NCBI GenBank assembly: GCA_036257195.1 | Contig: DATAFX010000093.1 | Coordinates: 2,308-66,307, forward strand | Direction of reading: 5' to 3' | Length of the DNA stretch: 64,000 nt | Origin: Candidatus Methylomirabilota bacterium | Lineage (GTDB): Bacteria > Methylomirabilota > Methylomirabilia > Rokubacteriales > DASRDR01 | In this document: in pieces, positions 6,703 to 47,473 of the stretch | How the letters are laid out: each line of letters starts with the position of its first letter | Numbering within the stretch: the first letter of the stretch is position 1 | Program-made: the position numbers and the translations under genes | The notes under the pieces: generated by a model | What the model was told of the DNA's origin: nothing | Database searches by the model: none | What the model saw: only the letters and a program-made list of their open reading frames with translations

Positions 6703-8139
6703 GTGTCGGTTCATGGGAACCTGATAGCCGGAGAGTGGGTCACGGGCCCCGACGTCAACCGCGACGTCAACCCGTCCAACGTGCAGGAGGTCGTCGGCGA
6801 GTACGCGCGGGCGGACGCGGCCCAGGCGCAGGCGGCCATCGCCGCCGCCCGGGCGGCGTTCCCCGCCTGGGCGCGGGGCAACCGGCAGGAGCGCGCCGAC
6901 CTTCTCGACCGCGCGGGAGACGAGATACTCCGCCGGGCCGAGGAACTCGGCACGCTGCTCTCGCGGGAAGAGGGCAAGACGCTCCCGGAGGGCATCGGGG
7001 AGGCCAAGCGCGCGGGCTACATCTTCAAGTTCTTTGCAGGCGAGGTCGTGCGGCAGGACGGTGAACTCATGGACTCCGTGCGCCCCGGGGTGTCGGTGGA
7101 GATCACCCGCGAGCCGATCGGCGTCGTCGGCATCATCACGCCCTGGAACTTCCCGCTCGCGATCCCGGCGTGGAAAATTGCACCGGCCTTGGCGCACGGC
7201 AACTGCGTCGTCTTCAAGCCCGCGGACCTGGTACCAGGCTGCGCGTGGGCGCTGGCCGACATCCTCGGGCGGGCGGGCGTGCCGTCCGGGGTCTTCAATC
7301 TCGTGATGGGGCGCGGGTCGGCGGTGGGGGAGGCCCTGATCGGCTCGACCGACGTCGACGGGATCAGCTTCACGGGCTCGATCGAGACGGGACGGGCCAT
7401 CGCGAAGAAAGTGGTCGCCCGCATGGGGAAGATCCAGCTCGAGATGGGAGGGAAGAACCCGTTGGTCGTCCTCGACGACGCCGACCTGGCCGTGGCCGTG
7501 AACTGTGCCGTCCAGGGCGCCTACTACTCGACCGGCCAGCGCTGCACGGCATCGAGCCGGCTGATCGTCACCGAGGGCATCCACGACCGCTTCGTACGGA
7601 TGATGGTGGAGCGGCTGGAGAAGCTGGTCGTCGACGACGCGCTCCGCAAGGGAACCGACATCGGCCCCGTGGTGGACCAGGGTCAGTTGGAACAGGACCT
7701 CGCCTACCTCGAGCTCGGGCGCCGAGAGGGGGCGCGGCTCGCGTGGGGGGGCGACCGGCTCCGGCGCGATCGCGAGGGCTACTACCTGGCGCCTGCACTC
7801 TTCACCGACACCACGAACGCCATGCGAATCAACCGAGAAGAGATCTTCGGGCCCGTCGCGACTGTCATCCGCGCGCGGGACTACGACGAGGCCCTCGTCC
7901 TGGCCAACGACACGCCGTTCGGGCTCTCGTCGGGTATCGTAACCACCTCGCTTCGGCACGCGAGCCACTTCAAACGGAACTCCCAGGCGGGGATGGTCAT
8001 GGTGAACCTGCCGACCGCCGGCGTCGACTACCACGTGCCGTTCGGGGGGCGAAAGGCCTCGAGCTACGGCCCCCGCGAGCAGGGGGCGTACGCACGGGAG
8101 TTCTACACGACGGTTAAGACGAGCTACACGGCTCCCTAG
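6703..8139 (+). CDS. NAD(P)+-dependent aldehyde dehydrogenase
   Basis: 478 aa with the ALDH motifs [20 protein letters not shown] and QRCTA (catalytic Cys), and EIFGPV. GTG start preceded by GAAGGAGAAGGA. Confidence 0.9.
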
Positions 8140-8903
8140 CGGGGGGCCATCCGGATGGCGCCGTCCAGGCGGATGGTCTCGCCGTTCAGCATGGGGTTCT
8201 CCACGATGTGGCACACCAGCGCGGCGTACTCCGCCGGGCGGCCGAGCCGGCTCGGGAAGGGGACCTGCCGGGCGAGGGACTGACGGGCGGGCTCGGGGAG
8301 CATCCCCATGAGCGGGGTGTCGAACAGGCCGGGAGCAATCGTGCAGACGCGGATGCCCACCTCGGCCAGATCCCGCGCGATCGGGAGCGTCATCCCGACG
8401 ATCCCGCCCTTCGAGGCCGAGTAGGCCGCCTGGCCGATCTGACCGTCGAAGGCCGCCACCGACGCCGTGTTGACGATCACGCCCCGCTCGCCGTCCTCGC
8501 CCGGTGCGTTCTGCGCCATCCGCGCCGCCACGAGCCGGATGCAGTTGAAGGTGCCGATAAGGTTCACCTGGATGACGAAAGTGAAGGACCCGAGGTCGTG
8601 CGGGCCGCGCTTGCCGTGCGTCTTCTCGGCGATGGCAACCCCCGCGCAGTTGACGAGTCCGTGGATCGGCCCGAAGCGCCCGGCCGCCACATCGACCGCG
8701 GCGCCCACGTTGTCGGCGTTCGTCACGTCACAGGGCGTGAACAGGGCGTGCGGGCCCAGTTCGGCGGCCACCTGGACGCCAGCCGACCGCTCGAGATCCA
8801 GGATGGCCACGCGTCCGCCGTGGCTCAGGAGCCGCTCGACGGTGGCCCGACCGAGTCCGGATGCGCCACCCGTCACCAGGAACGTTGAGCCGTCGATCTT
8901 CAT
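8136..8903 (-). CDS. Short-chain dehydrogenase/reductase, 3-hydroxyacyl-CoA dehydrogenase type-2 (HSD17B10)-like
   Basis: 255 aa from [26 protein letters not shown].... It has the TGxxxGxG Rossmann motif, a YSASK catalytic motif and NTAS. The upstream 75 aa of the ORF are junk. Confidence 0.9.
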
Positions 8904-9094
8904 GCGATGGGTCCTCGGCAGGGCTCGACCAGCCCGATCGTGTTGGATGTCGAAACGCCGCGAGGACGCTAGCATGCCCCTCGCGCGGGGGTCAAGGCGC
9001 GGCGGCCCGCGAGAGGGCCGGGTGCCCGCGTTATCCAACCCGCTCCCGACCATGCCCCCGCTCCCGGCGCTTCCGGACTGACCGGACCCTCGCC

Positions 9095-10297
9095 ATGTCC
9101 TGGCAGGCCTACCACACCGTGTGGGCACTCCTGATCTTCGGCTGGATCTGCAACTACGTCGTCCGCATGGCTTTCTCTCCCTTACTTGAGCCCGTCATGG
9201 CGGAGTTCGGCCTGAATCACGCCGAGGGGGGCTTTCTCTTCTCCGTGTTCTTCTACGGATACGTGGCGATGCAAGTGCCGGCGGGATTCCTCGGCGACCG
9301 CTTCGGGCGGAAGCGCGTGCTGGTCTTTGGCATCGTCCTGGTCGCGGGAGCCGCCCTGGTCACGGGTCTGTCCCGCACGCTGGCCGTCCTGGGCCTCGCG
9401 CGTCTCGTGACCGGTCTCGCCCAGGGCCTGTACTTTGCCAACGACCGGCCCATCATCGCGGCCGCGACCCCGCCCGACCGGCTCGCGGTCGGGCAGGGCG
9501 TGTCGTTCTCGGGACTGGGCATCGGTACGGCGCTCGGGGTCCTGGTGGGCGGGGCGCTCGGGGAGCTCATGTCCTGGCGACACGCCTTCCTCGTCCTGGC
9601 GGTCCTGCCGCTCCTGTCCGCGACTCTGATCGGTCGCTTGGTGCCCGACCCCGGCGGCGCGTCCCCGGCTCGCGCGTCCAGCGAGGAGATCGCCAACGTG
9701 TTCCGGCTGCGGGACCTCTGGCTCCTCGCGACCGCCGGCATCGCCCCGATCTGGACGCAGTGGCTCGTCGGGGCCTGGGGACCGGCCTTGTTCGCCGAGG
9801 TCGGGGTGCAGGAGCTGGGACGCTCCGCCGTCTACGCGAGCGTGCTCGGCATCGCCGCGCCGCCCGGTCTCCTGGCCGTGGGCACTCTCTCCGACCGCCT
9901 GCTGCGGCGCGGGATCCCCCGCCGCACAGTCGTCGCCGGCATGATTGCCGCGACCGCGATGCTGATCGCAGCCGTCGGCGTGGTCGTGCAGGCGCGCGGC
10001 CCCGTCTGGGTCCTCGCTCTCGTCGTCTTCGCGTGCAGCTTCTGTTTCTGGGGGACGTGGGCGCCCGCCTACGCGCTCACCGCGGAGCTCGCCCCGCGCC
10101 GGGCGATGGGGATCGCCTTCGGTGTGCTGAATGGCGTCGCGTTCATCGGCGCCCTGGTCGCGCCGTATGTGACGGGCTGGATCAAGGACTGGTCCGGTTC
10201 CTTCGCCGGGGGCTGCTACCTATCGGCCGTCGTGTGCGTCGTGGCCGTCCCGGTGGCGCTCGCCGTGGGTTCGCCGCGCCCGACGGGGTGGCACTGA
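9095..10297 (+). CDS. MFS transporter
   Basis: 400 aa from [17 protein letters not shown]... with 12 predicted TM helices and a [12 protein letters not shown] signature loop. Upstream ORF sequence is rejected. Confidence 0.85.
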
Positions 10298-10374
10298 CGC
10301 GGCGTTCGCGACGCTCCCCGAGCCGGATCCGACGGACCGGGGACGACCGCACCCCCACTGTATATACTGACGTC

Positions 10375-11709
10375 GTGAGCCGACCGAGCCGCCTCGTGAG
10401 CATCCTCGTCGCGCCCCTCGTCGGCCTCGCGTGCGTGTCGGCCGGTGCACAGGAGGTTGTCGAGGCGACCCTCGACAATGGCCTGCGGGTGCTGCTCCAG
10501 GAGGACCACCGGAGCCCGGTCGCTAGCCTCCAGGTCTGGTACCGGGTCGGTTCACGCGACGAGCGGGTCGGGCTCACCGGTCTCTCGCACTACCTCGAGC
10601 ACATGATGTTCAAGGGGACCCCGACGTACGGGGTTCGGGTCTACTCCAAGCTGATCGAGACGGTCGGCGGTCAGGACAACGCCTTCACGAGCCGCGACGC
10701 CACCGTGTACCACGTGACGGTGGCCGCGAACCAGCTCGACCTCGTGCTCGCGCTCGAGGCCGACCGGATGCGGCACCTGCTCCTCGACTCCCGGGAGGTC
10801 GACTCCGAGCGGAAGGTCGTGATGGAGGAGCGCCGGACCCGCACCGAGGACGACCCGGTCGGGGCCCTCGCCGAGCTCTTCAACGCCGTCGCGTTCACGG
10901 CCCATCCGTACCGCCTGCCGACGGTCGGGTTCGCGCAGGATATCGAGCGCCTGGCGGCGGGCGACCTCCGGAGCTGGTACGACACCTACTACCGGCCGAA
11001 CAATGCCATCCTCGTCGCGGTCGGCGATTTCCGGACGGCGGAGCTTCTCGAGAAGATCCGCGCGCGCTTCGGTGCAATCCCGCGCGGCCCCGATCCGCCG
11101 CGGGTTGCGGTGACCGAGCCTGAGCAGCGCGGCGAGCGGCGGGTCTGGCTGCGGAAGGAGGCTCAGCTGCCAGTCGTGTTCGCGGGCTATTCGGCGCCCA
11201 ACCACCGCTCGGAGGACGCCTACGCGCTGGAGGTCCTGTCGGCGGTGCTTTCGGGCGGGCGGACGTCCCGCCTCTACCGACGCCTGGTGTACGAGGACCG
11301 GCTCGCGCTGGAGGCGGGTGGGGACTACGCGCGCCTCAGCCTCGACCCGGACACGTTCACCTTCTACGTGACGGTCCTGCCCGGGCGCACCGTGGAGGAG
11401 GCCGAGCGCGCCCTGCTGGCGGAGGTGGAGCGGCTGCGGACGGACCTCGTCTCGGTGGAGGAGCTTCAGCGCGCCCAGAACCAGCTGGAGGCGGCCTATC
11501 TCTTCGCTCAGGACTCCGTCGTCAGCCGGTCGGGGTCGCTCGGCCGACACGAGCTTCTAGGGGGCTGGCGCCTCCGCGACGCGTACCTGGCGGGCATCCG
11601 AGCAATCACGCGGGACGACGTGCGACGGGTGGCCGAGCGCTACCTCGTCGCGGATCGGCGCACGACGGCGATCCTGGTGCCGGTTCCGGCGGCCGCCGCC
11701 CGACCGTAG
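10375..11709 (+). CDS. M16-family zinc peptidase, catalytically competent subunit (HxxEH present), secreted
   Basis: Signal peptide MSRPSRLVSILVAPLVGLACVSAGAQ, then LDNGLRVLL...GLSHYLEHMMFKGT (inverted zincin HxxEH) and the M16 C-terminal domain. GTG start at 10375 follows a TATATACT box. Confidence 0.85.
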   Translation: MSRPSRLVSILVAPLVGLACVSAGAQEVVEATLDNGLRVLLQEDHRSPVASLQVWYRVGSRDERVGLTGLSHYLEHMMFKGTPTYGVRVYSKLIETVGGQDNAFTSRDATVYHVTVAANQLDLVLALEADRMRHLLLDSREVDSERKVVMEERRTRTEDDPVGALAELFNAVAFTAHPYRLPTVGFAQDIERLAAGDLRSWYDTYYRPNNAILVAVGDFRTAELLEKIRARFGAIPRGPDPPRVAVTEPEQRGERRVWLRKEAQLPVVFAGYSAPNHRSEDAYALEVLSAVLSGGRTSRLYRRLVYEDRLALEAGGDYARLSLDPDTFTFYVTVLPGRTVEEAERALLAEVERLRTDLVSVEELQRAQNQLEAAYLFAQDSVVSRSGSLGRHELLGGWRLRDAYLAGIRAITRDDVRRVAERYLVADRRTTAILVPVPAAAARP

Positions 11710-11719
11710 CGAGGCGACG

Positions 11720-13033
11720 ATGACCTCCTTCGGGCGGGCCCTCAGGGGCGTGATCCTCGTCGTGGTGGCCCTGGTCGGGCTGGCGGTCGCCGGGCTCTGG
11801 GCGCTCTCGAGGCGCGAACCGCACGCTACCGGTCTCACGGTGGCGGGGACGATCGAGGCTCGGGACGTGGATCTCGCGCCCAAGACGACCGCTCGCATCG
11901 TCGCGATCCGCGTCGAGGAGGGCAGCCGCGTCCGCCGAGGTGACCTTGTGATCCAGCTGGACGACGCCGAGCTAGTTGCGGAGGTAGCGCGACTCGAGGC
12001 AGGCGTGCACGTGGCGCAGGCGCAGTTGCGCGACCTGGTGGCCGGCGCGCGGAAGGAAGAGATCGCCGAGGCTCGGGCGCAAGTCGGTCGCGCCGAGGCA
12101 ACCCTGGCCGACCTCCTGGCCGGCGCGCGGAAGGAGGAGGTCCAGGCGGCGCGCCAGGTGGTGGCCCAGGCCGAGGCGCGCCAGCGGGACCTCGAGGCCG
12201 GGGCGCGAGCCCAGGAGGTCGAGCAGGCCCGGAGCGCGGTCGCCTCGGCGGAAGCGACGCGGGTGTGGACGGAGCGGGAGTACGAGCGGCTCAAGGCCCT
12301 CTACGACAAGGACCTAGTGGCGGCCGCCGACAAGGACCGTGCCTGGCAGGCGTTCGAGGTCGCGCGCCTGCAGGAGCGCACGGCGCGAGAGCAGCTCGCG
12401 CTCGTGCTCGCGGGGCCGCGGAGCCAGCAGGTCGAGGCCGCCCGCGCCGAGGTTCGCCAGGCGCGCGAGCGACTGAACCTCCTCGAGGCGGGGCCGCGCC
12501 CCGATCAGGTCGAGGCCGCTCGCGCCGAGGTCCGCGCGGCGCGCGAGCGGCTCGCGCTGATGGAGGCCGGGCCCCGGCCCGGTCAGGTCGACACGGCCCG
12601 GGCCCAGCTCGCCCAGGCCGAGGCGACGCTGGCCCAGGCGCGCGCCCGGCTGGCGGACACACGGATCGAGGCGCCGATGGACGGCGTGGTCCTGCGGAAG
12701 AACCTGGAACCCGGAGCCATCGCGTCGCCGGGCGGGGCCATCGTCACCCTGGTGGATCCGACCGACCTCTGGCTCCGGGCGTACATTGCGGAAACCGACC
12801 TCGGCCGTGTCCACGTCGGCCAGACGGCGCGCGTCACCGTGGACGCCTTCCCGGGGCAGCCGTTCCAGGGTCGCGTCAGCGAGATCGCCTCCTCGGCGGA
12901 GTTCACGCCGCGGAACGTGCAGACCCAGAAGGAGCGGGTCAACCTGGTGTTCCGGCTGAAGATCGCGATCGCCAATTCCGACGGGCGGCTCAAGCCGGGT
13001 ATGCCCGCGGACGCGGTGATCCTGACGGACTAA
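11720..13033 (+). CDS. HlyD-family membrane-fusion / periplasmic adaptor protein
   Basis: N-terminal TM anchor, then a long Ala/Arg/Glu coiled-coil with internal repeats, then a C-terminal beta-barrel (IEAPMDGVV...LKPGMPADAVI). Confidence 0.85.
   Translation: MTSFGRALRGVILVVVALVGLAVAGLWALSRREPHATGLTVAGTIEARDVDLAPKTTARIVAIRVEEGSRVRRGDLVIQLDDAELVAEVARLEAGVHVAQAQLRDLVAGARKEEIAEARAQVGRAEATLADLLAGARKEEVQAARQVVAQAEARQRDLEAGARAQEVEQARSAVASAEATRVWTEREYERLKALYDKDLVAAADKDRAWQAFEVARLQERTAREQLALVLAGPRSQQVEAARAEVRQARERLNLLEAGPRPDQVEAARAEVRAARERLALMEAGPRPGQVDTARAQLAQAEATLAQARARLADTRIEAPMDGVVLRKNLEPGAIASPGGAIVTLVDPTDLWLRAYIAETDLGRVHVGQTARVTVDAFPGQPFQGRVSEIASSAEFTPRNVQTQKERVNLVFRLKIAIANSDGRLKPGMPADAVILTD
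12410..12620 (+). repeat. About 75-nt tandem repeats (roughly 2.7 copies) inside the HlyD coiled-coil coding region
   Basis: The DNA unit gcggggccgcg..caggtcgaggccgc.cgcgccgaggt.cgc..gcgcgcgagcg.ct...ct..t.gag recurs and encodes AGPRxxQVEAARAEVRxARERLxLxE repeats. Confidence 0.5.
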
Positions 13034-13048
13034 GGGGAGGACCGACGG

Positions 13049-14542
13049 GTGGTGAGGGACGGGACGACGACGGGCCCACTGGGTGACCTCGATCCGGAGG
13101 AGTTCCGGCGGCACGCCCACGAGGCGGTGGACTGGATCGCGGGCTTCCTCGCGGCGCCGGGGCGGTACCCGGTGCTGGCCCGGGTGAAGCCCGGGGAGGT
13201 GCGCGACGCCCTGCCGGCGACGGCTCCCGACGATCCGGAGCCGCTCGACCGGATCCTAGCGGACTTCGAGCGGGTGATCCTTCCCGGCGTGACCCACTGG
13301 AACCACCCGGGCTTCTTCGCGTACTTCGCGATCAGCGGCTCCGCCCCGGGCATCCTCGGCGAGCTCCTGTGCGCCGCGCTGAACGTCAACGCGATGCTGT
13401 GGCGGACCTCCCCCGCGGCCACCGAGCTGGAAGAAGTCGTCCTCGACTGGCTGCGGCAGCTCCTCGGGCTCCCCGCCGGGTTCCGCGGCGTCATCTATGA
13501 CACCGCGTCGATCTCGACGCTCTGCGCGCTCGCCGCCGCGCGCGAGGCCGCCGGGCTCGACGTGCGCGAGCAGGGGATGGCCGGGCGCGCCGACCTCCCG
13601 CGGCTGCGCGTCTACACGTCGGAGCAGGCGCATTCCTCGGTCGAGAAGGGCGCCATCGTCCTCGGCCTGGGCCGGGGGGGAGTGCGCAAGATTCCGACGG
13701 ACGCCGAGTTCCGCATGGACCCTTCGGCGCTCTCGCGCGCGGTCGCCGAGGACCGGGCTGCGGGCTGGCGACCCATCGCGGTGTGCGCGACCATCGGGAC
13801 GACCGGGACGACCAGCGTCGACCCGGTCCCGGCGGTGGCCGACGTCGCCGCGCGTGAGGGGCTCTGGCTCCACGTCGACGCCGCCTACGGCGGGGTCGCG
13901 GCCATCCTGCCCGAGCGGCGCGAGGTGCTGGCGGGGTGCGAGCGCGCCGACTCGATCGTCGTGAACCCGCACAAGTGGCTCTTCACGCCCATCGACTGCT
14001 CCGCCCTCTTCTGCCGCCGGCCGGACGTGCTGAAGCGCGCCTTCACCCTCGTGCCCTCGTTCCTCCAGACGCCGGAGGGGAGCGCGGTCGAGAACTACAT
14101 GGACTGGGGGCCGCAGCTCGGGCGCCGCTTCCGCGCCTTGAAGCTCTGGATGGTGCTCCGGGCGTTCGGCCGGTCCGGCATCGAGGCGCGCCTGCGCGAG
14201 CACATGCGTCTCGGGCGGCTGTTCGCCGAGTGGGTCGACGGCGATCCGGACTGGGAGCGCATCGCCCCCGTTCCGTTCAGCACGGTCGTTTTCCGGCTCC
14301 GGCCCCGGGGCTGGGCGGCCGACGATTCCCGGCTCAACGGGCTGAACGAGCGGCTGCTCGAGGGTGTGAACGCCTCGGGCGACGTCTTCCTTTCCCACGT
14401 GGTCCTGGGCGGACGCTACGCGCTTCGGCTGGCCATCGGCAACATCCGGACCGAGGAGCGCCACGTGGTGCGGGCGTGGGAGATCCTCCGGGCCCAGGCG
14501 CTCCGCCTCGGCGCCCTTCCGACCCACGTCGCCGGCGCGTAG
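13049..14542 (+). CDS. PLP-dependent group II amino-acid decarboxylase (aromatic-L-amino-acid / DABA decarboxylase-like)
   Basis: 497 aa with HWNHPGFFAYF, the PLP-lysine motif NPHKW and a full-length fold. GTG start with an AAGGGGAGG ribosome-binding site. Confidence 0.9.
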   Translation: MVRDGTTTGPLGDLDPEEFRRHAHEAVDWIAGFLAAPGRYPVLARVKPGEVRDALPATAPDDPEPLDRILADFERVILPGVTHWNHPGFFAYFAISGSAPGILGELLCAALNVNAMLWRTSPAATELEEVVLDWLRQLLGLPAGFRGVIYDTASISTLCALAAAREAAGLDVREQGMAGRADLPRLRVYTSEQAHSSVEKGAIVLGLGRGGVRKIPTDAEFRMDPSALSRAVAEDRAAGWRPIAVCATIGTTGTTSVDPVPAVADVAAREGLWLHVDAAYGGVAAILPERREVLAGCERADSIVVNPHKWLFTPIDCSALFCRRPDVLKRAFTLVPSFLQTPEGSAVENYMDWGPQLGRRFRALKLWMVLRAFGRSGIEARLREHMRLGRLFAEWVDGDPDWERIAPVPFSTVVFRLRPRGWAADDSRLNGLNERLLEGVNASGDVFLSHVVLGGRYALRLAIGNIRTEERHVVRAWEILRAQALRLGALPTHVAGA

Positions 14543-14577
14543 CCGCCGGGTTCCATCGAGAATCGGCGTCGCTCGAT

Positions 14578-15546
14578 ATGGTGATGCCGGCGGAGCCCGC
14601 GGTCTTGACCGAGGGGCTCACCAAGCGCTTCGGCGCCTTCACGGCGGTCGACCACGTCGACCTCCGCGTCGAGGCGGGCGAGCTCTACGGGTTCCTCGGC
14701 CCGAACGGCGCCGGGAAGTCCACGACCCTCCGGATGCTCTGCGGCATCCTCGAGCCCAGCGAGGGGAGCGGGCGAGTCCTCGGCATCGACCTCCGCGAGG
14801 AACCCGAGCGGATCAAGGCGGCCATCGGCTACATGTCGCAGCGCTTCTCGCTCTACGACGATCTGTCGGCCGCCGAGAACCTCGTCTTCTACGCGATGGT
14901 TTACGGCGTGCCCGGACGGGCCCGCCGGGAGCGCATCGACCGGATGGTCCAGCTCGCCGACCTGGTCGGTCGCGAGGACACCCTGGCGGGTCAGCTGTCG
15001 GGCGGCTACCGCCAGCGCCTCGCGCTGGCCTGCGCGCTCGTGCACGCGCCGCGGCTGATGTTCCTCGACGAGCCGACCGCCGGCGTCGACCCGGTCTCCC
15101 GCCGCACGTTCTGGGAGCTCATCCGCCGCCTCGCCGACGGCGGCGTCACGGTGGTGGTGACGACCCACTACATGGACGAGGCCGAGCACTGCGACCGCCT
15201 GGGGTTCATCTACCAGGGACGGCTGATCGCCCAGGACACGCCCGCCGCGATCAAGACCGAGGCGTTCGGCCGACCCGTGTTCCAGGTGGAAGCGTCGGGG
15301 CCCCAGAGGGCGATCGACGTGCTGGGCGACTGGGCAGCGGTCGAGGAGGCGGTCCGCTACGGGCTCCTGGTGCGCGTTGTGGCCGCGGAGCGCGGGCTGA
15401 CCGAGGCGGCCGTGGTCGACCACCTGCGGGCGGCCGGGTTGGAGGCGACCGTCCGCGCGGTCACCCCGACGGTCGAGGATGTCTTCATCTCGTTCGTGGA
15501 CAAGGAGCGCAAGGCGCGGCTGCGACGGCAGCTCGGCGCCTTCTGA
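14578..15546 (+). CDS. ABC transporter ATP-binding protein (ABC-2 / DrrA/YbhF-like)
   Basis: Walker A GPNGAGKST, Q-loop, ABC signature LSGGYRQR, Walker B MFLDEPTAGVD, H-loop and a C-terminal extension. Confidence 0.9.
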   Translation: MVMPAEPAVLTEGLTKRFGAFTAVDHVDLRVEAGELYGFLGPNGAGKSTTLRMLCGILEPSEGSGRVLGIDLREEPERIKAAIGYMSQRFSLYDDLSAAENLVFYAMVYGVPGRARRERIDRMVQLADLVGREDTLAGQLSGGYRQRLALACALVHAPRLMFLDEPTAGVDPVSRRTFWELIRRLADGGVTVVVTTHYMDEAEHCDRLGFIYQGRLIAQDTPAAIKTEAFGRPVFQVEASGPQRAIDVLGDWAAVEEAVRYGLLVRVVAAERGLTEAAVVDHLRAAGLEATVRAVTPTVEDVFISFVDKERKARLRRQLGAF

Positions 15547-15552
15547 CCGTCT

Positions 15553-16659
15553 ATGCGCCTCCTCGGCATGATGTGGAAGGAGCTGGTGCAGCTCCGGCGC
15601 GATCCCATGTCGCTCACCCTCGCGCTCATCATCCCCGTCGCGCTCCTGTTCATCTTCGGCTACGCGATCAACACCGACGTGCGGAACCTGCCGACCGTCG
15701 TCCTCGACGAGGCCCGCGACGTCGAGTCGCAGAAGCTCCTCGAAGCGTTTGCGAACACGCGCTATTTCGCACTCCGGTTCCAGGCGCGGTCGCTCGACGA
15801 GGTGGCCCGGCTCATCGACCGGGGCGACGCCAAGGTGGGGATCGTGATCCCGCCCGACTTCTCCGAGCGGCTCCGCGGCCGCGCCGCGACGTCGATCCAA
15901 GTGATCGTGGACGCCTCGGACCCCCAGGTCGCGGTCTCCGCCGTCAACGCCGCGACCGCGCTGGGCCTCGATCGCTCGCTCGAGATCCTGCGGCGGGGCG
16001 GGGTCGGGGTCGACGCCGGCCTCGACGTCCGCATCCGCGCCTGGTACAACCCCGACCAGGAGTCGGCGCTCTTCATCGTGCCCGGCCTCATCGGCGCCCT
16101 CCTCATGCAGACGACCATCACGATCATGGCGGTCGCCGTCGTCCGGGAGCGGGAGCGCGGGACGCTCGAGGCCCTCGTCGTGAGCCCGCTGAAGCGATGG
16201 GAGATCATGCTCGGGAAGATTCTCCCGAACCTCCTCGTCGCCTACGGCCAGATGACGCTGGCCCTGGTGGTGGCGCACTACGTGTTCGCGGTGCCGATCC
16301 GGGGGAGTGTGGCTCTCCTCTACGCGGTCTCGGCCGTCTTCATGCTGGGGACGCTCGGGATCGGCATCTACGTATCCACGATGTCGCGCACCGTGCCCCA
16401 GGCGATGCAGCTGGGGTTCCTCGCCATCCTGCCGTCCATCTACCTGTCGGGGCTCCTGTTCCCTCTGGAAGGGATGCCGGAGCCGGCGCAGTACATCGCG
16501 CGGATCTTGCCCATCACGTACTTCCTGCGGGTCATCCGAGGGATCGTGCTGAAGGGCATCGGCCTGGCCGACCTGTGGCCCGATGTCTGGCCCCTGATCG
16601 CGTTCGGGGCCGTGATCTTCACCCTGGCCGTGCTGCGCTTCCGCAAGTCGCTCGACTGA
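15553..16659 (+). CDS. ABC-2 type transporter permease (YbhR/YbhS/YhhJ-like)
   Basis: 368 aa with an N-terminal TM helix, a large periplasmic domain and a C-terminal 5-TM ABC-2 domain. Confidence 0.85.
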   Translation: MRLLGMMWKELVQLRRDPMSLTLALIIPVALLFIFGYAINTDVRNLPTVVLDEARDVESQKLLEAFANTRYFALRFQARSLDEVARLIDRGDAKVGIVIPPDFSERLRGRAATSIQVIVDASDPQVAVSAVNAATALGLDRSLEILRRGGVGVDAGLDVRIRAWYNPDQESALFIVPGLIGALLMQTTITIMAVAVVRERERGTLEALVVSPLKRWEIMLGKILPNLLVAYGQMTLALVVAHYVFAVPIRGSVALLYAVSAVFMLGTLGIGIYVSTMSRTVPQAMQLGFLAILPSIYLSGLLFPLEGMPEPAQYIARILPITYFLRVIRGIVLKGIGLADLWPDVWPLIAFGAVIFTLAVLRFRKSLD

Positions 16660-16690
16660 GCGGGGCGGAGGAGACGATGGAGGACCACCC

Positions 16691-17632
16691 GTGACCCGAG
16701 GGAGCCGGCGGCCGCTGAAGGTCGGCGTGGAGCTACCGATCGCCGTGGACAAGGGGCGCCACGGCACGCCGCGCTGGTCCGAGATCAGCCTGATGGCGCG
16801 GCGCGCCGAGGAGGTCGGATTCGACTCGGTGTGGATCGAGGATCACCTGCTGTTCCGGCACCAGGGACAGAGGGACCAGGGTGTCTGGGAGGGATGGGCC
16901 GTCATCGCCGCCATCGCGGCGGTGACCTCGCGCGTCGAGATCGGCCCGCTCGTCTCGTGCATGTCGTTCCGCAATCCCGCCTACCTCGCGAAGCTGGCCG
17001 ACACCATCGAGGAGATCTCGGGAGGGCGGTTGATCTTGGGGCTCGGGGCCGGGTGGCACGAGGCTGAATACCGAGCGTTCGGCTACCCCTTCGACCATCG
17101 GGTGAGCCGTTTCGAGGAAGGGCTCCGCATCGTGCACGGGCTGCTGCGGCAGGGCCGTGTGGACTTCGTCGGACGCTATCACGAGGCGCGTGAGTGCGAG
17201 CTCCGGCCCCGCGGGCCCCGGCCCGGCGGTCCCCCGATCTTGATCGGGTCGACGGGGGAACGCATGCTGGCGCTGCTGGCCCAGTACGGGGACGTGTGGA
17301 ACGCGTACTTCACTCCGACCAAGAACCGTCCCGCAGGCGTCGCCCCGCTCCGGGAGCGGGTCGACGCGGCCTGCCGCAAGGCTGGGCGCGATCCGGGAAC
17401 GGTCGGCCGTACGGTCGCGGTGTTCGTTGACATGGCGCCAGGAAAGGGCGCGTCCCCACCGCTGCCGCCGCACTGGACCTTCGAGCCCCTGGTCGGACCG
17501 CCCGAGCGCTTGGCGGAGGAGCTCCGGGCCTACGCGCGGGAGGGTATCGATCACATGCAGCTCTGGCTCGAGCCCAACACGCTGGAGAGCCTCGAGGCGT
17601 TCGCGCCGGCCCTCGAGCTGCTGGACCGGTAG
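16691..17632 (+). CDS. Luciferase-like monooxygenase (LLM) class oxidoreductase, probably F420-dependent
   Basis: 313 aa with FDSVWIEDHL, GGRLILGLGAGW and the TIM-barrel LLM signature. Confidence 0.8.
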   Translation: MTRGSRRPLKVGVELPIAVDKGRHGTPRWSEISLMARRAEEVGFDSVWIEDHLLFRHQGQRDQGVWEGWAVIAAIAAVTSRVEIGPLVSCMSFRNPAYLAKLADTIEEISGGRLILGLGAGWHEAEYRAFGYPFDHRVSRFEEGLRIVHGLLRQGRVDFVGRYHEARECELRPRGPRPGGPPILIGSTGERMLALLAQYGDVWNAYFTPTKNRPAGVAPLRERVDAACRKAGRDPGTVGRTVAVFVDMAPGKGASPPLPPHWTFEPLVGPPERLAEELRAYAREGIDHMQLWLEPNTLESLEAFAPALELLDR

Positions 17633-17685
17633 GCGGCGCCCGGTCGGGCCGGATCGTCGACGGCGGAGACCGGTATAATGCCGCC

Positions 17686-19041
17686 ATGCGCTTCAGCGCC
17701 CTGACGTGCGTCGCCCTGGCCGCCGCCGTCGCGGCGCCGGCCGGCGCGCAAACTCTTCCCGCGTCCCCGACCGCGCCGGCGTCTCCGGCGTGGACGCGCT
17801 TCGTCCTGCCGAACGGGCTCACGGTCCTCGTCGCCGAGCGGCCGGGTATCCCGATCATCATCGCGCGGGCCTCGATCGAGGCGGGAGCGGTCCTCGACCC
17901 CCAGGACAAGGGGGGTGTCGCCAACCTGGCCGCGCTGCTCCTCACTCGCGGGAGCGCGACCCGGTCCGCGGACGAGATCGACCGCGCCATCGAGTTCGTC
18001 GGCGGGAGCCTCGAGGGGGAGGGCGGGCGAGACTCCAGCGAGGTGGTGCTCTCCGTCCTGCGGAAGGATCTGGGCCTCGGGCTCGATCTGCTCGCCGACG
18101 CGCTCCTCCGGCCCGTCTTTCCGGAGTCCGAGTTCGAGCGGCAGCGCGACGAGGTGCTGGCGTCCGTGAAGCGCTCGGAGGAGGATCCGGGAGCCGTGGC
18201 CGCCCGCGCGCTCAGGCGGCTGGTCTTCGGCGAGCACCCCTACGGGCGGCCGGCGACGGGAACCGAGGCCTCGCTCCGCTCCATCACGCGGGACGACGTC
18301 ATCGCCTTCCACCGGGCGGCCTACCGGCCCGAGCGGACGATCATCGCGGTGGCGGGCGACGTCACCGCGGCGGCGATCCGGCCCGAGCTCGAGGCGCGCC
18401 TGGGCGCCTGGTCCGTGGCGTCCCCGGCCCCGCCGGCTCCCGCGCCGGTGACCCTCGGGTTGCCCTCGCGCACCGAGCCGATTCAGCGGAGCCTCACGCA
18501 GGCCACGATCCTCTTGGGCCAGGCGACCGTGACCCGGGAGCACCCCGACTACTACCCGCTCTTGGTCGCGAGCCAGATCCTCGGTGGCGGCTCGTCCTCG
18601 CGCCTGTACGCCCGTGTCCGTGAGGAGCGGGGCCTCGCCTACAACGTGTACGCCCAGTACGCCACGGCCCGCCTCGCCGGCTACTTCCTGGTGGAGCTTC
18701 AGAGCGAGAACGCGCGGATCCGGGAAGCCCTGACCGTGCTTCGGGAAGAGCTGGTCCGCCTTCGGCGGGAGCGGGTGTCGGAGGAGGAGCTCGGGCGCGC
18801 GCGTTCGTACCTGATCGGGAGCTTCCCCCTGCGGATGGACACGGCCGGGGGCGTGTCGGATCTCCTGGTCGCGATCGAGCGGTACGGCCTCGGGCTCGAC
18901 TACCCGGCGCGCTTCCGGGCGAGCGTGGCCGCCGTCACGCGGGAGGACGTGCTCCGGGCCGTGCGGACCCACTGGGACCCCGACGGCATGAGCCTCGCGC
19001 TCGTCGGCAACCTCCGAGAGGTCGGGATCGGGAGCCCCTGA
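17686..19041 (+). CDS. M16-family peptidase, non-catalytic (no HxxEH) partner subunit, secreted
   Basis: Signal peptide MRFSALTCVALAAAVAAPAGAQ and an M16 inactive-domain fold. It has R/Y motifs and no zinc-binding HxxEH. Confidence 0.85.
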   Translation: MRFSALTCVALAAAVAAPAGAQTLPASPTAPASPAWTRFVLPNGLTVLVAERPGIPIIIARASIEAGAVLDPQDKGGVANLAALLLTRGSATRSADEIDRAIEFVGGSLEGEGGRDSSEVVLSVLRKDLGLGLDLLADALLRPVFPESEFERQRDEVLASVKRSEEDPGAVAARALRRLVFGEHPYGRPATGTEASLRSITRDDVIAFHRAAYRPERTIIAVAGDVTAAAIRPELEARLGAWSVASPAPPAPAPVTLGLPSRTEPIQRSLTQATILLGQATVTREHPDYYPLLVASQILGGGSSSRLYARVREERGLAYNVYAQYATARLAGYFLVELQSENARIREALTVLREELVRLRRERVSEEELGRARSYLIGSFPLRMDTAGGVSDLLVAIERYGLGLDYPARFRASVAAVTREDVLRAVRTHWDPDGMSLALVGNLREVGIGSP

Positions 19042-19042
19042 C

Positions 19043-19681
19043 GTGGCGCACTTCGGCGGCGGGCGTAGTCGGCCGGGAGGGACGGGGGTCCGGCGGGGGG
19101 CTCTCGTCGCGGCGCTCACCCTCGCCCTGATCGCCGCGTCGGGCGCCTCCTATCCTGTTCCGGCGCTGATCGGCGATCTGACGGAGGAGGGGATTCGCCA
19201 GGCGATCGAGGCGGGTATCGCCTCGATCACGCAAGACGAGTTCGCCGAGGAGTGGCAACTCCGGCTGCCGGGCGGCGAGGACGTGGTGGTCAGCACGCCG
19301 TTCTCCCGGCTCGCGCTCGCGGCCCGTCAGGCGGCGATCAAGGGCGAGTCGCTCACCGAGCGGCAGCGACAGGAGCAGATCGACCGGGGCAAGGGACGCA
19401 TCCAGCTTCTGGTCACGATGCACGGAGGCCCTTCCCGGAGTTTCGCCCGGTTCTATCAGCCGGTGCTCCTGGTGAACGGCCGCGAGATGAAGCCGACCTT
19501 CGTCCAGAATGAGCGGACCCCGCTGCAGCAGGAAGATGGTCGCCTCGCCGCGCGCAACGTGTACGTGTTCGCGCTCGAGGGGCTTCCGGAGAACGGCACC
19601 GTGACGCTGGTGGTGAGGGCAGCGCCTCCGGAACAGAAGGAGGTCCTGCGGGCCAAGATGGATCTGGGCAAGTTTCGCTGA
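19043..19681 (+). CDS. Hypothetical secreted/lipoprotein-like protein
   Basis: 212 aa with non-biased composition and an N-terminal hydrophobic segment (ALVAALTLALIAASGAS). It is tightly coupled to the upstream gene. The exact start is uncertain. Confidence 0.5.
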   Translation: MAHFGGGRSRPGGTGVRRGALVAALTLALIAASGASYPVPALIGDLTEEGIRQAIEAGIASITQDEFAEEWQLRLPGGEDVVVSTPFSRLALAARQAAIKGESLTERQRQEQIDRGKGRIQLLVTMHGGPSRSFARFYQPVLLVNGREMKPTFVQNERTPLQQEDGRLAARNVYVFALEGLPENGTVTLVVRAAPPEQKEVLRAKMDLGKFR

Positions 19682-19712: not shown

Positions 19713-20213
19713 ATGGTCACGAAGCAGCGCTTCGCGCAAGGCATGACGTTCCAGCAATACCTCGACCAGATGAATACCAACAAGGATAAGTTCCTGGAGA
19801 CGCTGGCGGCGGTACACGTCACGCCGCAGGACCGGGCGGTCTTCGCGAGCCGCGGCGAGAAGCTCAACGTCCTCGTCCTGACCGAGGACTGGTGCGGTGA
19901 CGCCCTGACCAACTTTCCGGTGCTCGCCCGGATGATCGAGGGCGCCCCGAACGTGGAGATGCGGGTCTTCCTCCGGGACCAGAATCAGGACCTCATGGAC
20001 CAGTACCTCAACCGGGGACTCTACCGGTCGATCCCGGTCTTCGTGTTCTTCGACGAGAACATGAGAGAGATCGCCCGCTTCGTCGAGCGGCCCCCGAAGA
20101 TCACGGAGTACATGGAGCAGAAGCAGCTCGAGCTGCGCCGCCAGCTCCGCGCCCAGCATGGGGACGAGTGGCGGCAGTCGGCGGCCGAGGAGATCCGCGC
20201 GCTGCTCGGATGA
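19713..20213 (+). CDS. Thioredoxin-fold family protein
   Basis: 166 aa with LVLTEDWCGDALTNFPVLARM, a degenerate thioredoxin-like CxxC region with a single Cys. GC content is lower than the neighbours. Confidence 0.65.
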   Translation: MVTKQRFAQGMTFQQYLDQMNTNKDKFLETLAAVHVTPQDRAVFASRGEKLNVLVLTEDWCGDALTNFPVLARMIEGAPNVEMRVFLRDQNQDLMDQYLNRGLYRSIPVFVFFDENMREIARFVERPPKITEYMEQKQLELRRQLRAQHGDEWRQSAAEEIRALLG

Positions 20214-21685
20214 ACGTCGCCCACTTCCTGGAGGCGAGCGCTCGCCACCATCCCGGGCGCCCCGCCCTCGTCTTCGGGGAGCGCCGCTGGACGTACGCCG
20301 AGCTCGACCAGGAGGCTGGGCGAGTGGCGGCCGGCCTCGCCCGCCTCGGCATTCGGGCCGGCGAGCGCGTGTGTCTCCATCTCGCGAACCGGCCGGAGTT
20401 CGTGTTCGCCTACTACGGGTGCCAGAAGCTCGGCGCCGCGCCGGTCGCGCTCAACGTCACGTACGTGCGCGACGAGCTCGCGTACATCATCCGGGACAGC
20501 GAGGCGGCCGCGATCCTGACCGGGCCGCCGTTCGCCGCCCAACTCCCGGACCCTCGCGAGACTCCGTCCGTCCGGGCACGCATCGGCGCCGGCGAGCCCG
20601 GGTCCGTCTCCTTCGACGCGCTCCTGGCCGACCCCCCGCTGCCGGCGGTCGACGCGGACCGCGAGGAGGTGGCGGCGATCCTCTACACCTCGGCCACGAC
20701 GGGCCGCCCCAAGGGCGTGATGCTCACTCACGCGAACGTCGTGTCGAACACGCACGCGACGGTGCACCACCTCCGCATGACCCCGCAGGATCGAGGGCTG
20801 TGCGCCCTTCCGCTGTTTCATTGCTTCGGCCAGAACTTCATCATGAACGCGCTGGTGGCCGCTGGCGGGACGCTGGTCCTGCAGGAACGGTTTGTCCCGG
20901 TCGCGTTCCTGTCCGCGATCGCCGACCACCGCATTACTATCCTCTACGCAGTGCCGACGATGTACATCGTGCTCCTGGCCGGCGACCTGGCCGGGCATGA
21001 TGTCTCCTCGCTCCGGCTCGCCTTCTCGGCGGCGGCCATGCTTCCCGGCGACGTCGAGCAGCGGTGGACTGCGGCGACCGGGCTCCCGGTCTCGCAGGGC
21101 TATGGGCTCACCGAGTGCTCCCCCTTCGCGACCTACAACCACGAGCAGGCCCACCGGCCGGGCTCGGTCGGCACACCGATCGAAAACGTCGAGATGCGGG
21201 TCGTCGACGAGAACGACCGTCCGGTCCCGGACGGCGCGCTCGGCGAGATCGTGATTCGGGGACCTAACGTCATGCGAGGCTACCTGGGTAAGCCCGAGGA
21301 AACGGCCGCGGTGCTGCGCGGAGGGTGGCTCCACTCGGGCGACATCGGCTATCGAGATGACGACGGCTACTTCCACGTCGTCGACCGCGTGAAGGACATG
21401 ATCAACGTCGCCGGCTTCAAGGTCTTCCCGCGAGAGGTCGAGGAGGTGCTCTTCGAGCATCCCGCCGTGGCCGAGGCGGCGGTGCTGGGGCAGCCGGATC
21501 CCGTCAAGGGCGAAGTGGTGCGCGCGTGCGTGGTGCTGCGGCCAGGGCAGGCGACGACGGCCGAGGAGCTGATCGAGCGCTGTCGAGTCCGCGTCGCCCC
21601 GTACAAGGTTCCGGTGGTCGTGGAGTTCCTTCCGGCGCTGCCCAAGAGCCCGACCGGCAAGATCCTCAAGAAGAACCTCCGGTGA
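20210..21685 (+). CDS. AMP-dependent synthetase/ligase (long-chain fatty-acid--CoA ligase-like)
   Basis: YTSATTGRPKGV (AMP-binding), GYGLTE, the GDIGYRDDDGYFHVVDR hinge, and PKSPTGKILK (A10 Lys). An ATGA overlap with the upstream gene. Confidence 0.9.
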   Translation: MNVAHFLEASARHHPGRPALVFGERRWTYAELDQEAGRVAAGLARLGIRAGERVCLHLANRPEFVFAYYGCQKLGAAPVALNVTYVRDELAYIIRDSEAAAILTGPPFAAQLPDPRETPSVRARIGAGEPGSVSFDALLADPPLPAVDADREEVAAILYTSATTGRPKGVMLTHANVVSNTHATVHHLRMTPQDRGLCALPLFHCFGQNFIMNALVAAGGTLVLQERFVPVAFLSAIADHRITILYAVPTMYIVLLAGDLAGHDVSSLRLAFSAAAMLPGDVEQRWTAATGLPVSQGYGLTECSPFATYNHEQAHRPGSVGTPIENVEMRVVDENDRPVPDGALGEIVIRGPNVMRGYLGKPEETAAVLRGGWLHSGDIGYRDDDGYFHVVDRVKDMINVAGFKVFPREVEEVLFEHPAVAEAAVLGQPDPVKGEVVRACVVLRPGQATTAEELIERCRVRVAPYKVPVVVEFLPALPKSPTGKILKKNLR

Positions 21686-45784: not shown

Positions 45785-47473
45785 TTAGTCCCGACAACCG
45801 AGAAGCCGCAGCGTGTCCTCGCGCAGTCGCGCCCGCTGCACCTTGTCTCCGTGGGGCCCCGGTGTGCGCGGCACGTCCGGAACGACGAAGACGTGGCGTG
45901 GCACCTTGTAGCCAGCCAGGCGCCCCCGGCAGTGCGCGATGACTTCCGATTCGGTCGGCGCGGCGGCAGGACGCGGGATGACGTAGGCGACCGCGACCTC
46001 CCCGAGGCGTGCGTCGGGAACGCCGACCACGAACGCCTGGGCAAGCTTCGGGTGCGTCACCAGGAATGCCTCGATCTCGGCGGGCGCTACCATCTGGTGA
46101 CCGATCCGGAGCGTCTCCTTCAGCCGGCCGACGAAGAACACGCGCCCGGCTGCGTCCAGGACCGCGAGGTCCCCCGTATGGAGCCATCCGTCCGGATCGA
46201 TCGCCTTTCGCGTCTCCTCCGGCTTCTCGTGGTAGCCGCGCGTGACCTGAGGGCCGCGGAGGAGCAGCTCGCCGGCCTCCCCGGAGGGACGGTCCGCGCC
46301 CGTGTCGGGGTCGACGACGCGCGCTTCGAGCCCTTCAGCCGGCCAGCCGCCCGCCCGACGTCGGAGCTCGACCGGATCGTCGGGACAGGGACACAGCGCG
46401 AGCGCGTTCACCTCCGTCATGCCGTAGGGCTGGACGGCGCCGGTCATCCCGAGACGTCCCACGACCTCGTCGAAGAGACCGTGGCGGCCTCCACCTGTCA
46501 TGGCCACGCCGCCCGTGCGCAGCGAGGAGCGGTCGTGGCGCTCGAGCTCCGGGTGGTCGAGCACCGCGGCGAGCATCGCATCGACGGCGTTCCAGACGGT
46601 GATCCGCTCCTGCTCGATCAGGTGGATCACGACTGCGGGATCGAACCCGTCGGTGACTACGAGCGCCGCGCCGTGGCTCCAGGCCATGAGGGGGATCAGG
46701 AGGCCACCCCACGTTCCGGAGAACGGCAGCGTATGCAGCACGCGGTCCTGCTCGGACAGCCCGAGGCGCGCGCCCGAGGCGAATGCATGGGGTACCGCGT
46801 TCTCGTGGCTGATCATGGCCCCCTTCGGGAACGCAGTCGTGCCGGAGGTGTAGAGGATGGCGAAAACCCGGTCGGGCGTGACGAGGGTTCGTCGCGACGC
46901 GAGGAGCGCCTCGAGCCCCGGGTCCTCCCCGGCGGCCAGGATGTCGGCGTGCCGATGGGTGCCCCCGTAGGCGTCGTCCGCGAGACAGACTACATGGCGG
47001 AGCCTTGGGAACCGCTCGAAGCTGAGCCGATCGGCGTCGCGGGTGTGGAGGCGGGGCAGAACCTCGTCGAGGCGCTCCAGGTAGTCCACGGGGCCGGCGT
47101 GGTCCTGCAGCACGAGGGCGGTTGCGCCGGACTGGCGCAGGACGTAGTCGAGCTCATGGGCCCGATGCCGGGTGTTGACCGCCACGAGCACCGCGCCGAT
47201 CCGGGCGACGGCGTGCTGCATTACCAGCCACTCCGGCCGGTTCGGCATCCAGAGCGCCACCCGGTCATTGGGCTCGATCCCGAGCGCGAGAAGCCCGCGG
47301 GCGCAGCGCTCGATCTCGCGACCGAGGTCGGCGTAGCTGAGGCGGCGCTCGAGGAAGACCAGCGCCTCCCGCGCCGGATGACGGCGCAGGACGTCGTCGA
47401 GCATCGAGGCAAGGGTCGCGTCGCGGTACCGGTTTCCCGGAGCGTAGCCGGCCATGGAGTAGAATTTTCGCAT
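45785..47473 (-). CDS. AMP-dependent acyl-CoA synthetase/ligase
   Basis: YTSGTTAFPKGA, GMTE, the GDLAVLDAAGRVFFVGR hinge and GDKVQRA. The start is MRKFYS (or MAGYAPG). Confidence 0.85.
   Translation of the reverse strand: MRKFYSMAGYAPGNRYRDATLASMLDDVLRRHPAREALVFLERRLSYADLGREIERCARGLLALGIEPNDRVALWMPNRPEWLVMQHAVARIGAVLVAVNTRHRAHELDYVLRQSGATALVLQDHAGPVDYLERLDEVLPRLHTRDADRLSFERFPRLRHVVCLADDAYGGTHRHADILAAGEDPGLEALLASRRTLVTPDRVFAILYTSGTTAFPKGAMISHENAVPHAFASGARLGLSEQDRVLHTLPFSGTWGGLLIPLMAWSHGAALVVTDGFDPAVVIHLIEQERITVWNAVDAMLAAVLDHPELERHDRSSLRTGGVAMTGGGRHGLFDEVVGRLGMTGAVQPYGMTEVNALALCPCPDDPVELRRRAGGWPAEGLEARVVDPDTGADRPSGEAGELLLRGPQVTRGYHEKPEETRKAIDPDGWLHTGDLAVLDAAGRVFFVGRLKETLRIGHQMVAPAEIEAFLVTHPKLAQAFVVGVPDARLGEVAVAYVIPRPAAAPTESEVIAHCRGRLAGYKVPRHVFVVPDVPRTPGPHGDKVQRARLREDTLRLLGCRD

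Follow-up and report, generated by a model that had tools for sequence, protein, structure and literature searches.

In a 64,000-nucleotide stretch of contig DATAFX010000093.1 from a Candidatus Methylomirabilota soil bacterium of the phylum Rokubacteria/Methylomirabilota (the window, meaning the whole stretch analysed, with a G+C content of ~71%), the two genes of a heterodimeric M16 peptidase, here called M16A and M16B, are separated by 5976 nt and bracket the genes of a predicted efflux pump, a pyridoxal 5'-phosphate (PLP)-dependent decarboxylase and a luciferase-like (LLM) oxidoreductase. We consider it fairly probable that this seven-gene locus is a lineage-specific composite of known parts that was built stepwise, with a plausible coupling of the pump to the peptidase, and that it is not a single novel system. 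The original prediction, made from the letters of the window, described a secreted M16 pair split by one inserted five-gene cassette, and one operon that could couple extracytoplasmic peptide processing, amine formation and export. Pfam searches confirmed the positions and the families of all seven genes, which are as follows.

10375-11709, forward strand: M16A (Peptidase_M16 6.8e-30 and M16_C 1.5e-33)
11720-13033, forward strand: HlyD-type adaptor (HlyD_D23 / HlyD_3)
13049-14542, forward strand: group II PLP decarboxylase (Pyridoxal_deC PF00282, 1e-100)
14578-15546, forward strand: ABC ATPase (ABC_tran 5e-31)
15553-16659, forward strand: ABC-2 permease (ABC2_membrane_3 2.5e-51)
16691-17632, forward strand: LLM oxidoreductase (Bac_luciferase 5e-53)
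17686-19041, forward strand: M16B (M16 6e-17 and M16_C 2e-40)

The gaps between these genes are, in gene order, 10, 15, 35, 6, 31 and 53 nt, in agreement with the range of 6-53 nt given in the prediction, and the spacer upstream of the block is 77 nt. The start of the ABC ATPase is ATG 14578 (MVMPAEP...), 12 nt upstream of 14590, which was the start used in the first Pfam scan. No terminator-like site was found when the block (10375-19041) was scanned, and its end at 19041 is arbitrary, as the co-directional string of genes runs on past M16B.

The M16 proteins have several features of a known peptidase pair. For both subunits, the best solved match is Sph2681/Sph2682 of Sphingomonas sp. A1 (Protein Data Bank (PDB) entry 3amj), active subunit with active and inactive with inactive: M16A matched 3amj_C ("zinc peptidase active subunit") at 1.7e-90, and M16B matched 3amj_B ("zinc peptidase inactive subunit") at 5.6e-56. 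As in that pair, the subunits have two domains and ~45-48 kDa, and HxxEH and the distal Glu are found in the alpha subunit only. M16A carries the zinc motif H72-Y-L-E75-H76 (nt 10588-10602) and the distal Glu in VVMEER (E151/E152), and M16B reads ANLAA at the HxxEH site in a pairwise alignment, so that its zinc motif is absent. At another matching position M16B has REERGLAY and M16A has YEDRLAL, and the former is compatible with the R/Y pair of a beta subunit. Read from sequence, both N-termini are of the Sec type, with a positive n-region, a hydrophobic core of 12-15 residues and then AGA|Q. The catalytic and non-catalytic M16B subunits and the signal peptides on both proteins, as originally predicted, were thereby borne out. 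Taken together, the motifs and the structural matches identify the two genes, at the level of predicted function, as the Rokubacterial orthologues of the widespread periplasmic heterodimeric M16B zinc peptidase pair of the Sph2681/Sph2682 type. The physiological substrates of bacterial M16B heterodimers are unknown (PMC12731061).

The separation of the two genes in the window is exceptional. For the comparison, one genome per species was scanned with M16A and metagenomes were scanned with M16B, and the window proteins were then mapped by tblastn; the metagenome scan gave three close relatives only, every one on a contig of 2.8 kb or less. M16A and M16B are adjacent in 127 of the 134 loci carrying both genes (gap -18 to 454 nt, median 152 nt), and these 127 belong to Nitrospirota, to delta-, beta- and gamma-proteobacteria, and to two NC10-type genomes whose M16A is 54-56% identical. 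The pair is split in the other seven, which are Rokubacteria-type without exception. Because 127 loci have adjacent genes and only these seven Rokubacteria-type loci are split, the adjacency is, on this comparison, ancestral and the split is derived. Since the M16 genes are normally adjacent, the intervening genes are therefore insertions. Both the normal adjacency of heterodimeric M16B genes and the insertion had been proposed earlier, together with gene order in relatives as the check, and both held in this comparison. Unlike the adjacent genes of Sph2681/Sph2682, those in the window are 6 kb apart and each stands behind a -10-like box.

Other features were observed around M16 genes outside the window. 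L025, L103, L117 and L121 (some of them Nitrospirota-type) carry a further M16A-like gene of distant similarity (26-27% identity), placed upstream of the adjacent pair by a few kb. A divergent ABC ATPase gene, 28-34% identical to that of the window, lies ~1.2-2 kb upstream of M16A in over 35 proteobacterial loci (within L028-L080), and we presume that this is probably ftsE of an ftsYEX cluster. L044 (NZ_AEXL02000126.1), filed as Candidatus Nitrosopumilus salarius BD31, holds a reverse ABC ATPase gene, M16A and M16B, all proteobacteria-like with 41% identity, and the contig may be a bacterial contaminant in an archaeal assembly.

The stepwise growth of the locus can be read from the gene order in relatives. 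When the neighbourhoods of decarboxylase and adaptor homologues were compared, at least seven arrangements of the space between the M16 genes were found, including the following (HlyD, adaptor; ABC, ATPase; ABC2, permease).

M16A-HlyD-ABC-ABC2-M16B, without decarboxylase: L172 and L175 (Rokubacteria metagenome-assembled genomes (MAGs), HlyD 52-54% identical; L175 stops before M16B)
M16A-HlyD-ABC-ABC2-M16B-CorA, without decarboxylase: L173 and L174
M16A-HlyD-decarboxylase-ABC-ABC2-M16B, without LLM: L082-84
HlyD-(reverse DUF4114)-decarboxylase-ABC-ABC2-M16B, without LLM: L170
M16A-HlyD-decarboxylase-ABC-ABC2-LLM-M16B: the window and L081
M16A-decarboxylase-LLM-M16B, pump absent: L152 and L165
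M16A-decarboxylase-(322-aa membrane protein)-M16B, pump absent: L085

The DUF4114 gene of L170 (1043-1642, reverse strand) lies with a spacer of ~950 nt between the adaptor and decarboxylase genes, a region that accepts insertions.

The whole block of the window recurs in L081 with protein identities of 79-95%, and the smaller order M16A-HlyD-ABC-ABC2-M16B is kept down to 52% identity of M16B and HlyD. In L172 and L175, the M16A-HlyD, HlyD-ABC and ABC2-M16B junctions overlap (stop/start) or lie within 4 nt. In a neighbour-joining tree of M16B, the decarboxylase-free L172 is basal in the Rokubacteria clade, with the remaining forms in two sub-clades. In addition, every pump-bearing relative that has the decarboxylase gene has it precisely between those of the adaptor and the ATPase. 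The simplest reading of these data is that the pump genes entered first, the decarboxylase gene was then inserted between those of the adaptor and the ATPase, and LLM was added last in one sub-clade, with two or more losses of the pump and one or more of the decarboxylase. The inserted cassette of the original prediction is therefore retained as an insertion and given up as a single event, because relatives without LLM, without decarboxylase or without the pump indicate at least three successive events. We infer that the enzyme and LLM are optional add-ons and not core parts. Outside the lineage the decarboxylase is linked to neither the peptidase nor the pump: orthologues with 67-71% identity (Blastocatellia, Latescibacteria and one other MAG) lack M16 and pump genes as neighbours, and they lie beside phosphoglycerate-mutase-like and glycine cleavage genes in Blastocatellia and beside URO-D-like genes in Latescibacteria. 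We found no literature describing the arrangement seen in the window, including in Rokubacteria, and the statement that it is not a described system is upheld to this extent.

The adaptor, the ATPase and the permease are predicted to form a YbhGFSR/RbbA-like efflux pump. The adaptor scores 249.6 bits with NCBIfam PRK03598, under the cut-off of 393, and its hydrophobic N-terminus is a predicted membrane anchor; its close homologues, including one that is 88% identical, carry an HH_YBHG domain and the JGI name "membrane fusion protein YbhG". The adaptor has 437 aa in the window and 382-386 aa in the basal decarboxylase-free L172 and L175. The ATPase has a single nucleotide-binding domain of the DrrA/RbbA-like kind (NCBIfam RbbA 273 bits and drrA 268 bits, both under cut-off), and the permease is of the YbhS/YhhJ/RbbA type, matching the C-terminal half of NCBIfam RbbA with 244 bits. 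The RbbA model thus covers the ATPase and permease halves, with a score under the equivalog cut-off. These parts resemble the E. coli systems YbhG-YbhFSR and YhiI-RbbA-YhhJ in having a YbhG-type helical-hairpin adaptor, a DrrA/RbbA-like ATPase and an ABC2_membrane_3 permease, and the basal relatives also share their order of adaptor, ATPase and permease. However, E. coli YbhF has two nucleotide-binding domains and there are two permease genes, YbhS and YbhR, whereas the window has one domain and one permease gene. The window pump further differs from YbhG-YbhFSR in that every NCBIfam score is under the equivalog cut-off, and from the E. coli systems in that the adaptor gene is split from the ATPase gene by that of the PLP enzyme and peptidase genes flank the set as a whole. 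No gene for a TolC-like outer-membrane channel was found among the genes scanned at 4.4-27.8 kb of the window.

The PLP enzyme clearly belongs to the family of the aromatic-L-amino-acid decarboxylases (AAADs), with the group II fold and a predicted cytoplasmic location. It matches DOPA decarboxylase (7xin, 6e-124), CrTDC (6eew, 1.8e-121) and plant TDC/TyDC (~1e-120) in the PDB. As in the AAADs (P. putida and animal DOPA decarboxylase and plant TDC/TyDC, with E-values of 1e-100 to 1e-124), the PLP Lys (K309, in NPHKW) and the small-loop His (H195, in EQAHSS) are present, and the Gly at CrTDC position 370 is conserved. This Gly and the Leu before it resemble those of animal and P. putida DOPA decarboxylases, but they do not discriminate substrates in bacteria. 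The name L-2,4-diaminobutyrate decarboxylase, used in some database entries, was rejected, with an NCBIfam score of 207 bits against a cut-off of 900.

The enzyme departs from the amine-forming type at one residue. When it was aligned with 7xin and 6eew, Phe338 (TTC, nt 14060-14062) was found at the position of the large-loop catalytic Tyr. The Tyr counterparts are Y332 in pig DDC and Y348 in CrTDC, for which the numbering is Lys319/Tyr348/His203 (bioRxiv 10.1101/404970). In pig DDC, human HDC and the AAADs of plants, a change of this Tyr to Phe yields aldehyde synthases, which act as decarboxylation-dependent oxidative deaminases (PMC11308512; PMC7497351; bioRxiv 10.1101/404970), and according to a review, aromatic aldehyde synthase (AAS) enzymes are known from plants, mushrooms and insects only (PMC7497351). 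Because Phe338 replaces the Tyr that protonates the quinonoid, we regard an arylacetaldehyde as the product with slightly better than even confidence. The amine formation of the original prediction is accordingly doubtful, since the enzyme lacks the catalytic Tyr expected of amine-forming AAADs and has the residue expected of AAS. It shares Phe at this position with plant PAAS/4HPAAS and the Y332F mutant of pig DDC. Unlike the plant AAS enzymes, it is bacterial, its Tyr and Phe forms swap among proteins that are 85-90% identical, and its aldehyde product is a prediction only.

The window enzyme is 100% identical to P0001, a protein of a Methylomirabilota (Rokubacteria-type) MAG, and the variation at position 338 can be followed among its relatives. 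The 120 closest database proteins have Tyr in 86 cases, Phe in 30 and Ala in one, with one more Tyr mis-scored as Leu and two that could not be scored. Within the Rokubacteria clade (P0001-P0055, 74-90% identical), which includes one Ala form, the Phe and Tyr forms are interleaved, and at least 14 changes are needed on a neighbour-joining tree. Outside this clade the large-loop Tyr is nearly invariant and is kept by the orthologues from other phyla; among 150 diverse representatives of 50%-identity clusters, the position holds Tyr in 118 and Phe in 5. In L152 and L165 a frameshift falls right within the catalytic loop, and their Tyr/Phe state cannot be read.

The LLM gene is optional in the lineage, being absent from L082-84, L170, L172 and L173. 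Its membership in the LLM family, as originally described, stands (Bac_luciferase, listed above), but the F420 type is only suggested: the best NCBIfam model, TIGR03560, gives 201.4 bits against a cut-off of 231.4, and TIGR03619 gives 158.5 against 166.9. Its PDB matches are distant (1e-20) and include F420-dependent alcohol and hydroxymycolate dehydrogenases.

Transcription of the block appears to be more complex than that of one operon. Two -10-like boxes lie immediately before the M16 genes.

10363-10368, forward strand: TATACT, 6 nt before the GTG start of M16A, a putative leaderless-type promoter
17674-17679, forward strand: TATAAT, 6 nt before the ATG of M16B and the only one in the 64-kb window, a putative internal promoter

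The box before M16B, in the form GGTATAATGC..ATG, is kept in L081, L082/83, L085, L086, L087, L170, L173/174 and L152/165. None of the relatives in the two derived sub-clades lacks it, while the gene upstream varies (LLM, the permease or the 322-aa gene) and the rest of the spacer has diverged. Because the box is kept whatever gene lies upstream, M16B probably has its own leaderless-type promoter. Ahead of M16A, L172 and L175 have GTATAAT, 7 nt and GTG. A TAnnnT hexamer also stands 6-8 nt before five or six other gene starts of the window, when ~0.2 would be expected by chance for ~55 genes.

35429, 40566 and 47472, forward strand: gene starts behind TAnnnT
39648 and 51068, reverse strand: gene starts behind TAnnnT
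4786, forward strand: possibly a further such start

A sigma-70 scan for two hexamers found no promoter, and inspection of the junctions showed these boxes, which have a -10 element only. Such spacing is the signature of leaderless transcription, and its recurrence at several gene starts suggests that leaderless transcripts are common in the organism. We infer two transcription units, one from M16A to LLM and one from M16B onwards, with read-through between them possible because there is no terminator. The single operon of the original prediction is therefore too simple: the common strand, the short gaps and the lack of a terminator speak for it, and the conserved TATAAT 6 nt before M16B speaks against it. 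A promoter of its own for M16B may also make further insertions harmless and allow the split of the heterodimer genes to be tolerated.

The genes on both sides of the block were also compared.

6703-8139, forward strand, and 8136-8909, reverse strand: aldehyde dehydrogenase and short-chain dehydrogenase, just upstream of the MFS gene
9092-10297, forward strand: MFS transporter (Pfam MFS_1 1.4e-45), directly upstream of M16A
19043-19681, forward strand: 212-aa protein (unk212), 1 nt after M16B, with a hydrophobic, Arg-rich N-terminus
19713-20213, forward strand: Thioredoxin_9 protein (Pfam 4e-39)
~20207-21685, forward strand: acyl-CoA ligase (NCBIfam long-chain-fatty-acid-CoA ligase, 465 bits)

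The order MFS-M16A is found in L001, L082, L172 and L173 and is absent in L081. The aldehyde dehydrogenase/short-chain dehydrogenase pair is upstream of M16A in L081 and absent from L082 and L173, and it could be relevant if the PLP enzyme makes an aldehyde. The 212-aa protein has no Pfam or NCBIfam match. Its homologue follows M16B in L081-84, L088, L170, L172 and L152/165, sometimes behind an intervening CorA gene, and it is lineage-specific, as it does not stand beside M16B in the loci compared from other phyla. The order of Thioredoxin_9 and acyl-CoA ligase is kept in L081, L088 and L152/165, and a gene for a Tim44-like protein follows the ligase in the same-strand string. A second acyl-CoA ligase gene (45821-47416, reverse strand), 36% identical to that at ~20207-21685, was also observed.

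These data can be combined into a tentative picture of how the locus would work. Both M16 subunits would be Sec-exported and assemble into a periplasmic clamshell that degrades or trims short peptides. Between the two genes of this ancestrally adjacent pair, those of a YbhG-type adaptor, an ATPase and a permease have entered, giving the tightly packed five-gene unit of the basal members. In the cytoplasm, the PLP enzyme would convert an aromatic amino acid and O2 to an arylacetaldehyde, CO2, NH3 and H2O2, and not to an amine, which would be the product of its Tyr-form relatives. Reduction or oxidation of the arylacetaldehyde by LLM is possible but unsupported. Since the enzyme gene sits inside the pump gene set, the pump would be the likeliest route for removal of the product. 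A functional coupling of the M16 pair to the pump is plausible, and a role of both in the envelope is likely shared; the latter is favoured because the association persists to ~52% identity, with translational coupling in the basal forms. The coupling is not obligatory, because the M16 pair and the enzyme each occur without the pump.

Other explanations were weighed against this one. The presence of a peptidase, an enzyme and an exporter on one strand, with short gaps and no terminator-like sites, would also fit one integrated seven-gene operon, in which one of the peptides or amino acids set free by the M16 pair becomes an amine through the decarboxylase, LLM modifies this amine and the pump exports it. 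The recurrence of the whole block in L081 at the identities given above and the MFS transporter upstream are in its favour. However, the decarboxylase and LLM are each dispensable in close relatives, a conserved internal -10 box precedes M16B, Phe338 predicts an aldehyde and not an amine, and the orthologues of the decarboxylase elsewhere have unrelated neighbours. Its topology is also awkward, with a periplasmic peptidase, a cytoplasmic decarboxylase and a pump that exports. We therefore find the integrated pathway quite improbable, and a chain from peptide processing through decarboxylation to export is speculative. A ribosomal-peptide (bacteriocin-like) cluster was considered because the sbo-alb subtilosin cluster combines the same types of part, an M16B heterodimer (AlbE/AlbF, a documented pair; PMC12731061) that processes the peptide to maturity, encoded alongside an ABC ATPase and membrane permease (AlbC/AlbD). 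Unlike sbo-alb, the window block lacks genes for a precursor peptide, a radical-SAM enzyme and immunity, and it does have an adaptor and a secreted peptidase that is orthologous to a housekeeping pair. Gaps of 53 nt or less leave no room for a precursor gene, no radical-SAM enzyme, cyclase or other maturase is encoded among the genes scanned, and the NHLP-HlyD match is weak (43.5 bits against a cut-off of 156). Both M16 subunits, moreover, have signal peptides and are orthologous to the housekeeping periplasmic pair found across phyla. A cluster of this kind is highly improbable here, and it was ruled out, as precursor gene and maturase are both absent at the locus.

A less elaborate alternative is that the space between the M16 genes simply tolerates insertions, within a string of envelope genes that is well expressed, with the order kept by descent and no functional relation among the neighbours. 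This would explain why the content of the space varies so widely (the seven or more arrangements include the reverse DUF4114 gene of L170 and the unrelated 322-aa membrane protein of L085) and why the M16 pair works without the pump in all other phyla, and insertions would be harmless if M16B has its own promoter. It accounts less well for the M16A-HlyD-ABC-ABC2-M16B order, which is maintained to 52% identity with overlapping stop and start codons, unusual for unrelated genes, and for the exact placement of the decarboxylase gene between those of the adaptor and the ATPase. We regard such hitch-hiking as unlikely. At the other extreme, the M16-alpha, adaptor, ATPase, permease and M16-beta might form one envelope machine throughout Rokubacteria, in which the ABC-2 pump passes peptides or some other cargo to a dedicated periplasmic "peptidasome", and the aromatic-amino-acid enzyme added in the sub-lineage of the window toggles between amine and aldehyde and feeds the same pump. 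This, too, is an unlikely case. If it were true, the locus would hold the first natural bacterial aromatic aldehyde synthases, toggled by single-nucleotide changes and apparently under diversifying selection.

The stepwise composite with plausible pump-peptidase coupling, which we prefer, also has points that weigh against it. Every functional role is a prediction from sequence and gene order, and the neighbour-joining trees carry no support values. Relatives with the M16 pair and the decarboxylase lack the pump, so that neither is strictly pump-dependent, and in every other phylum the M16 pair occurs without it; two of the pump-less relatives, L152 and L165, are error-rich assemblies. Gene order that is conserved in a single phylum might be synteny kept by descent, without functional coupling. 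As for the PLP enzyme, the effect of Tyr to Phe is established in animal and plant enzymes and not in bacterial members of this clade, and the alternation of Tyr, Phe and Ala could reflect relaxed constraint instead of a functional switch.

In conclusion, each part of this locus is ordinary when taken alone, and the significance of their combination, as read from the predicted functions, is not established. Several features are nevertheless useful for the study of these genes, and two of them, the putative internal promoter with its conserved box and the switch between Tyr and Phe, go beyond the original prediction. The pump, long bracketed by the M16 pair in one lineage, is a hint at a functional partner for M16B heterodimers. 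The alternation of Tyr and Phe at the residue that decides between amine and aldehyde suggests that bacterial aromatic aldehyde synthases exist and that they switch easily. In addition, the locus is a clear case of operon growth by nested insertion, in which an internal promoter may explain how the split of the heterodimer genes is tolerated.

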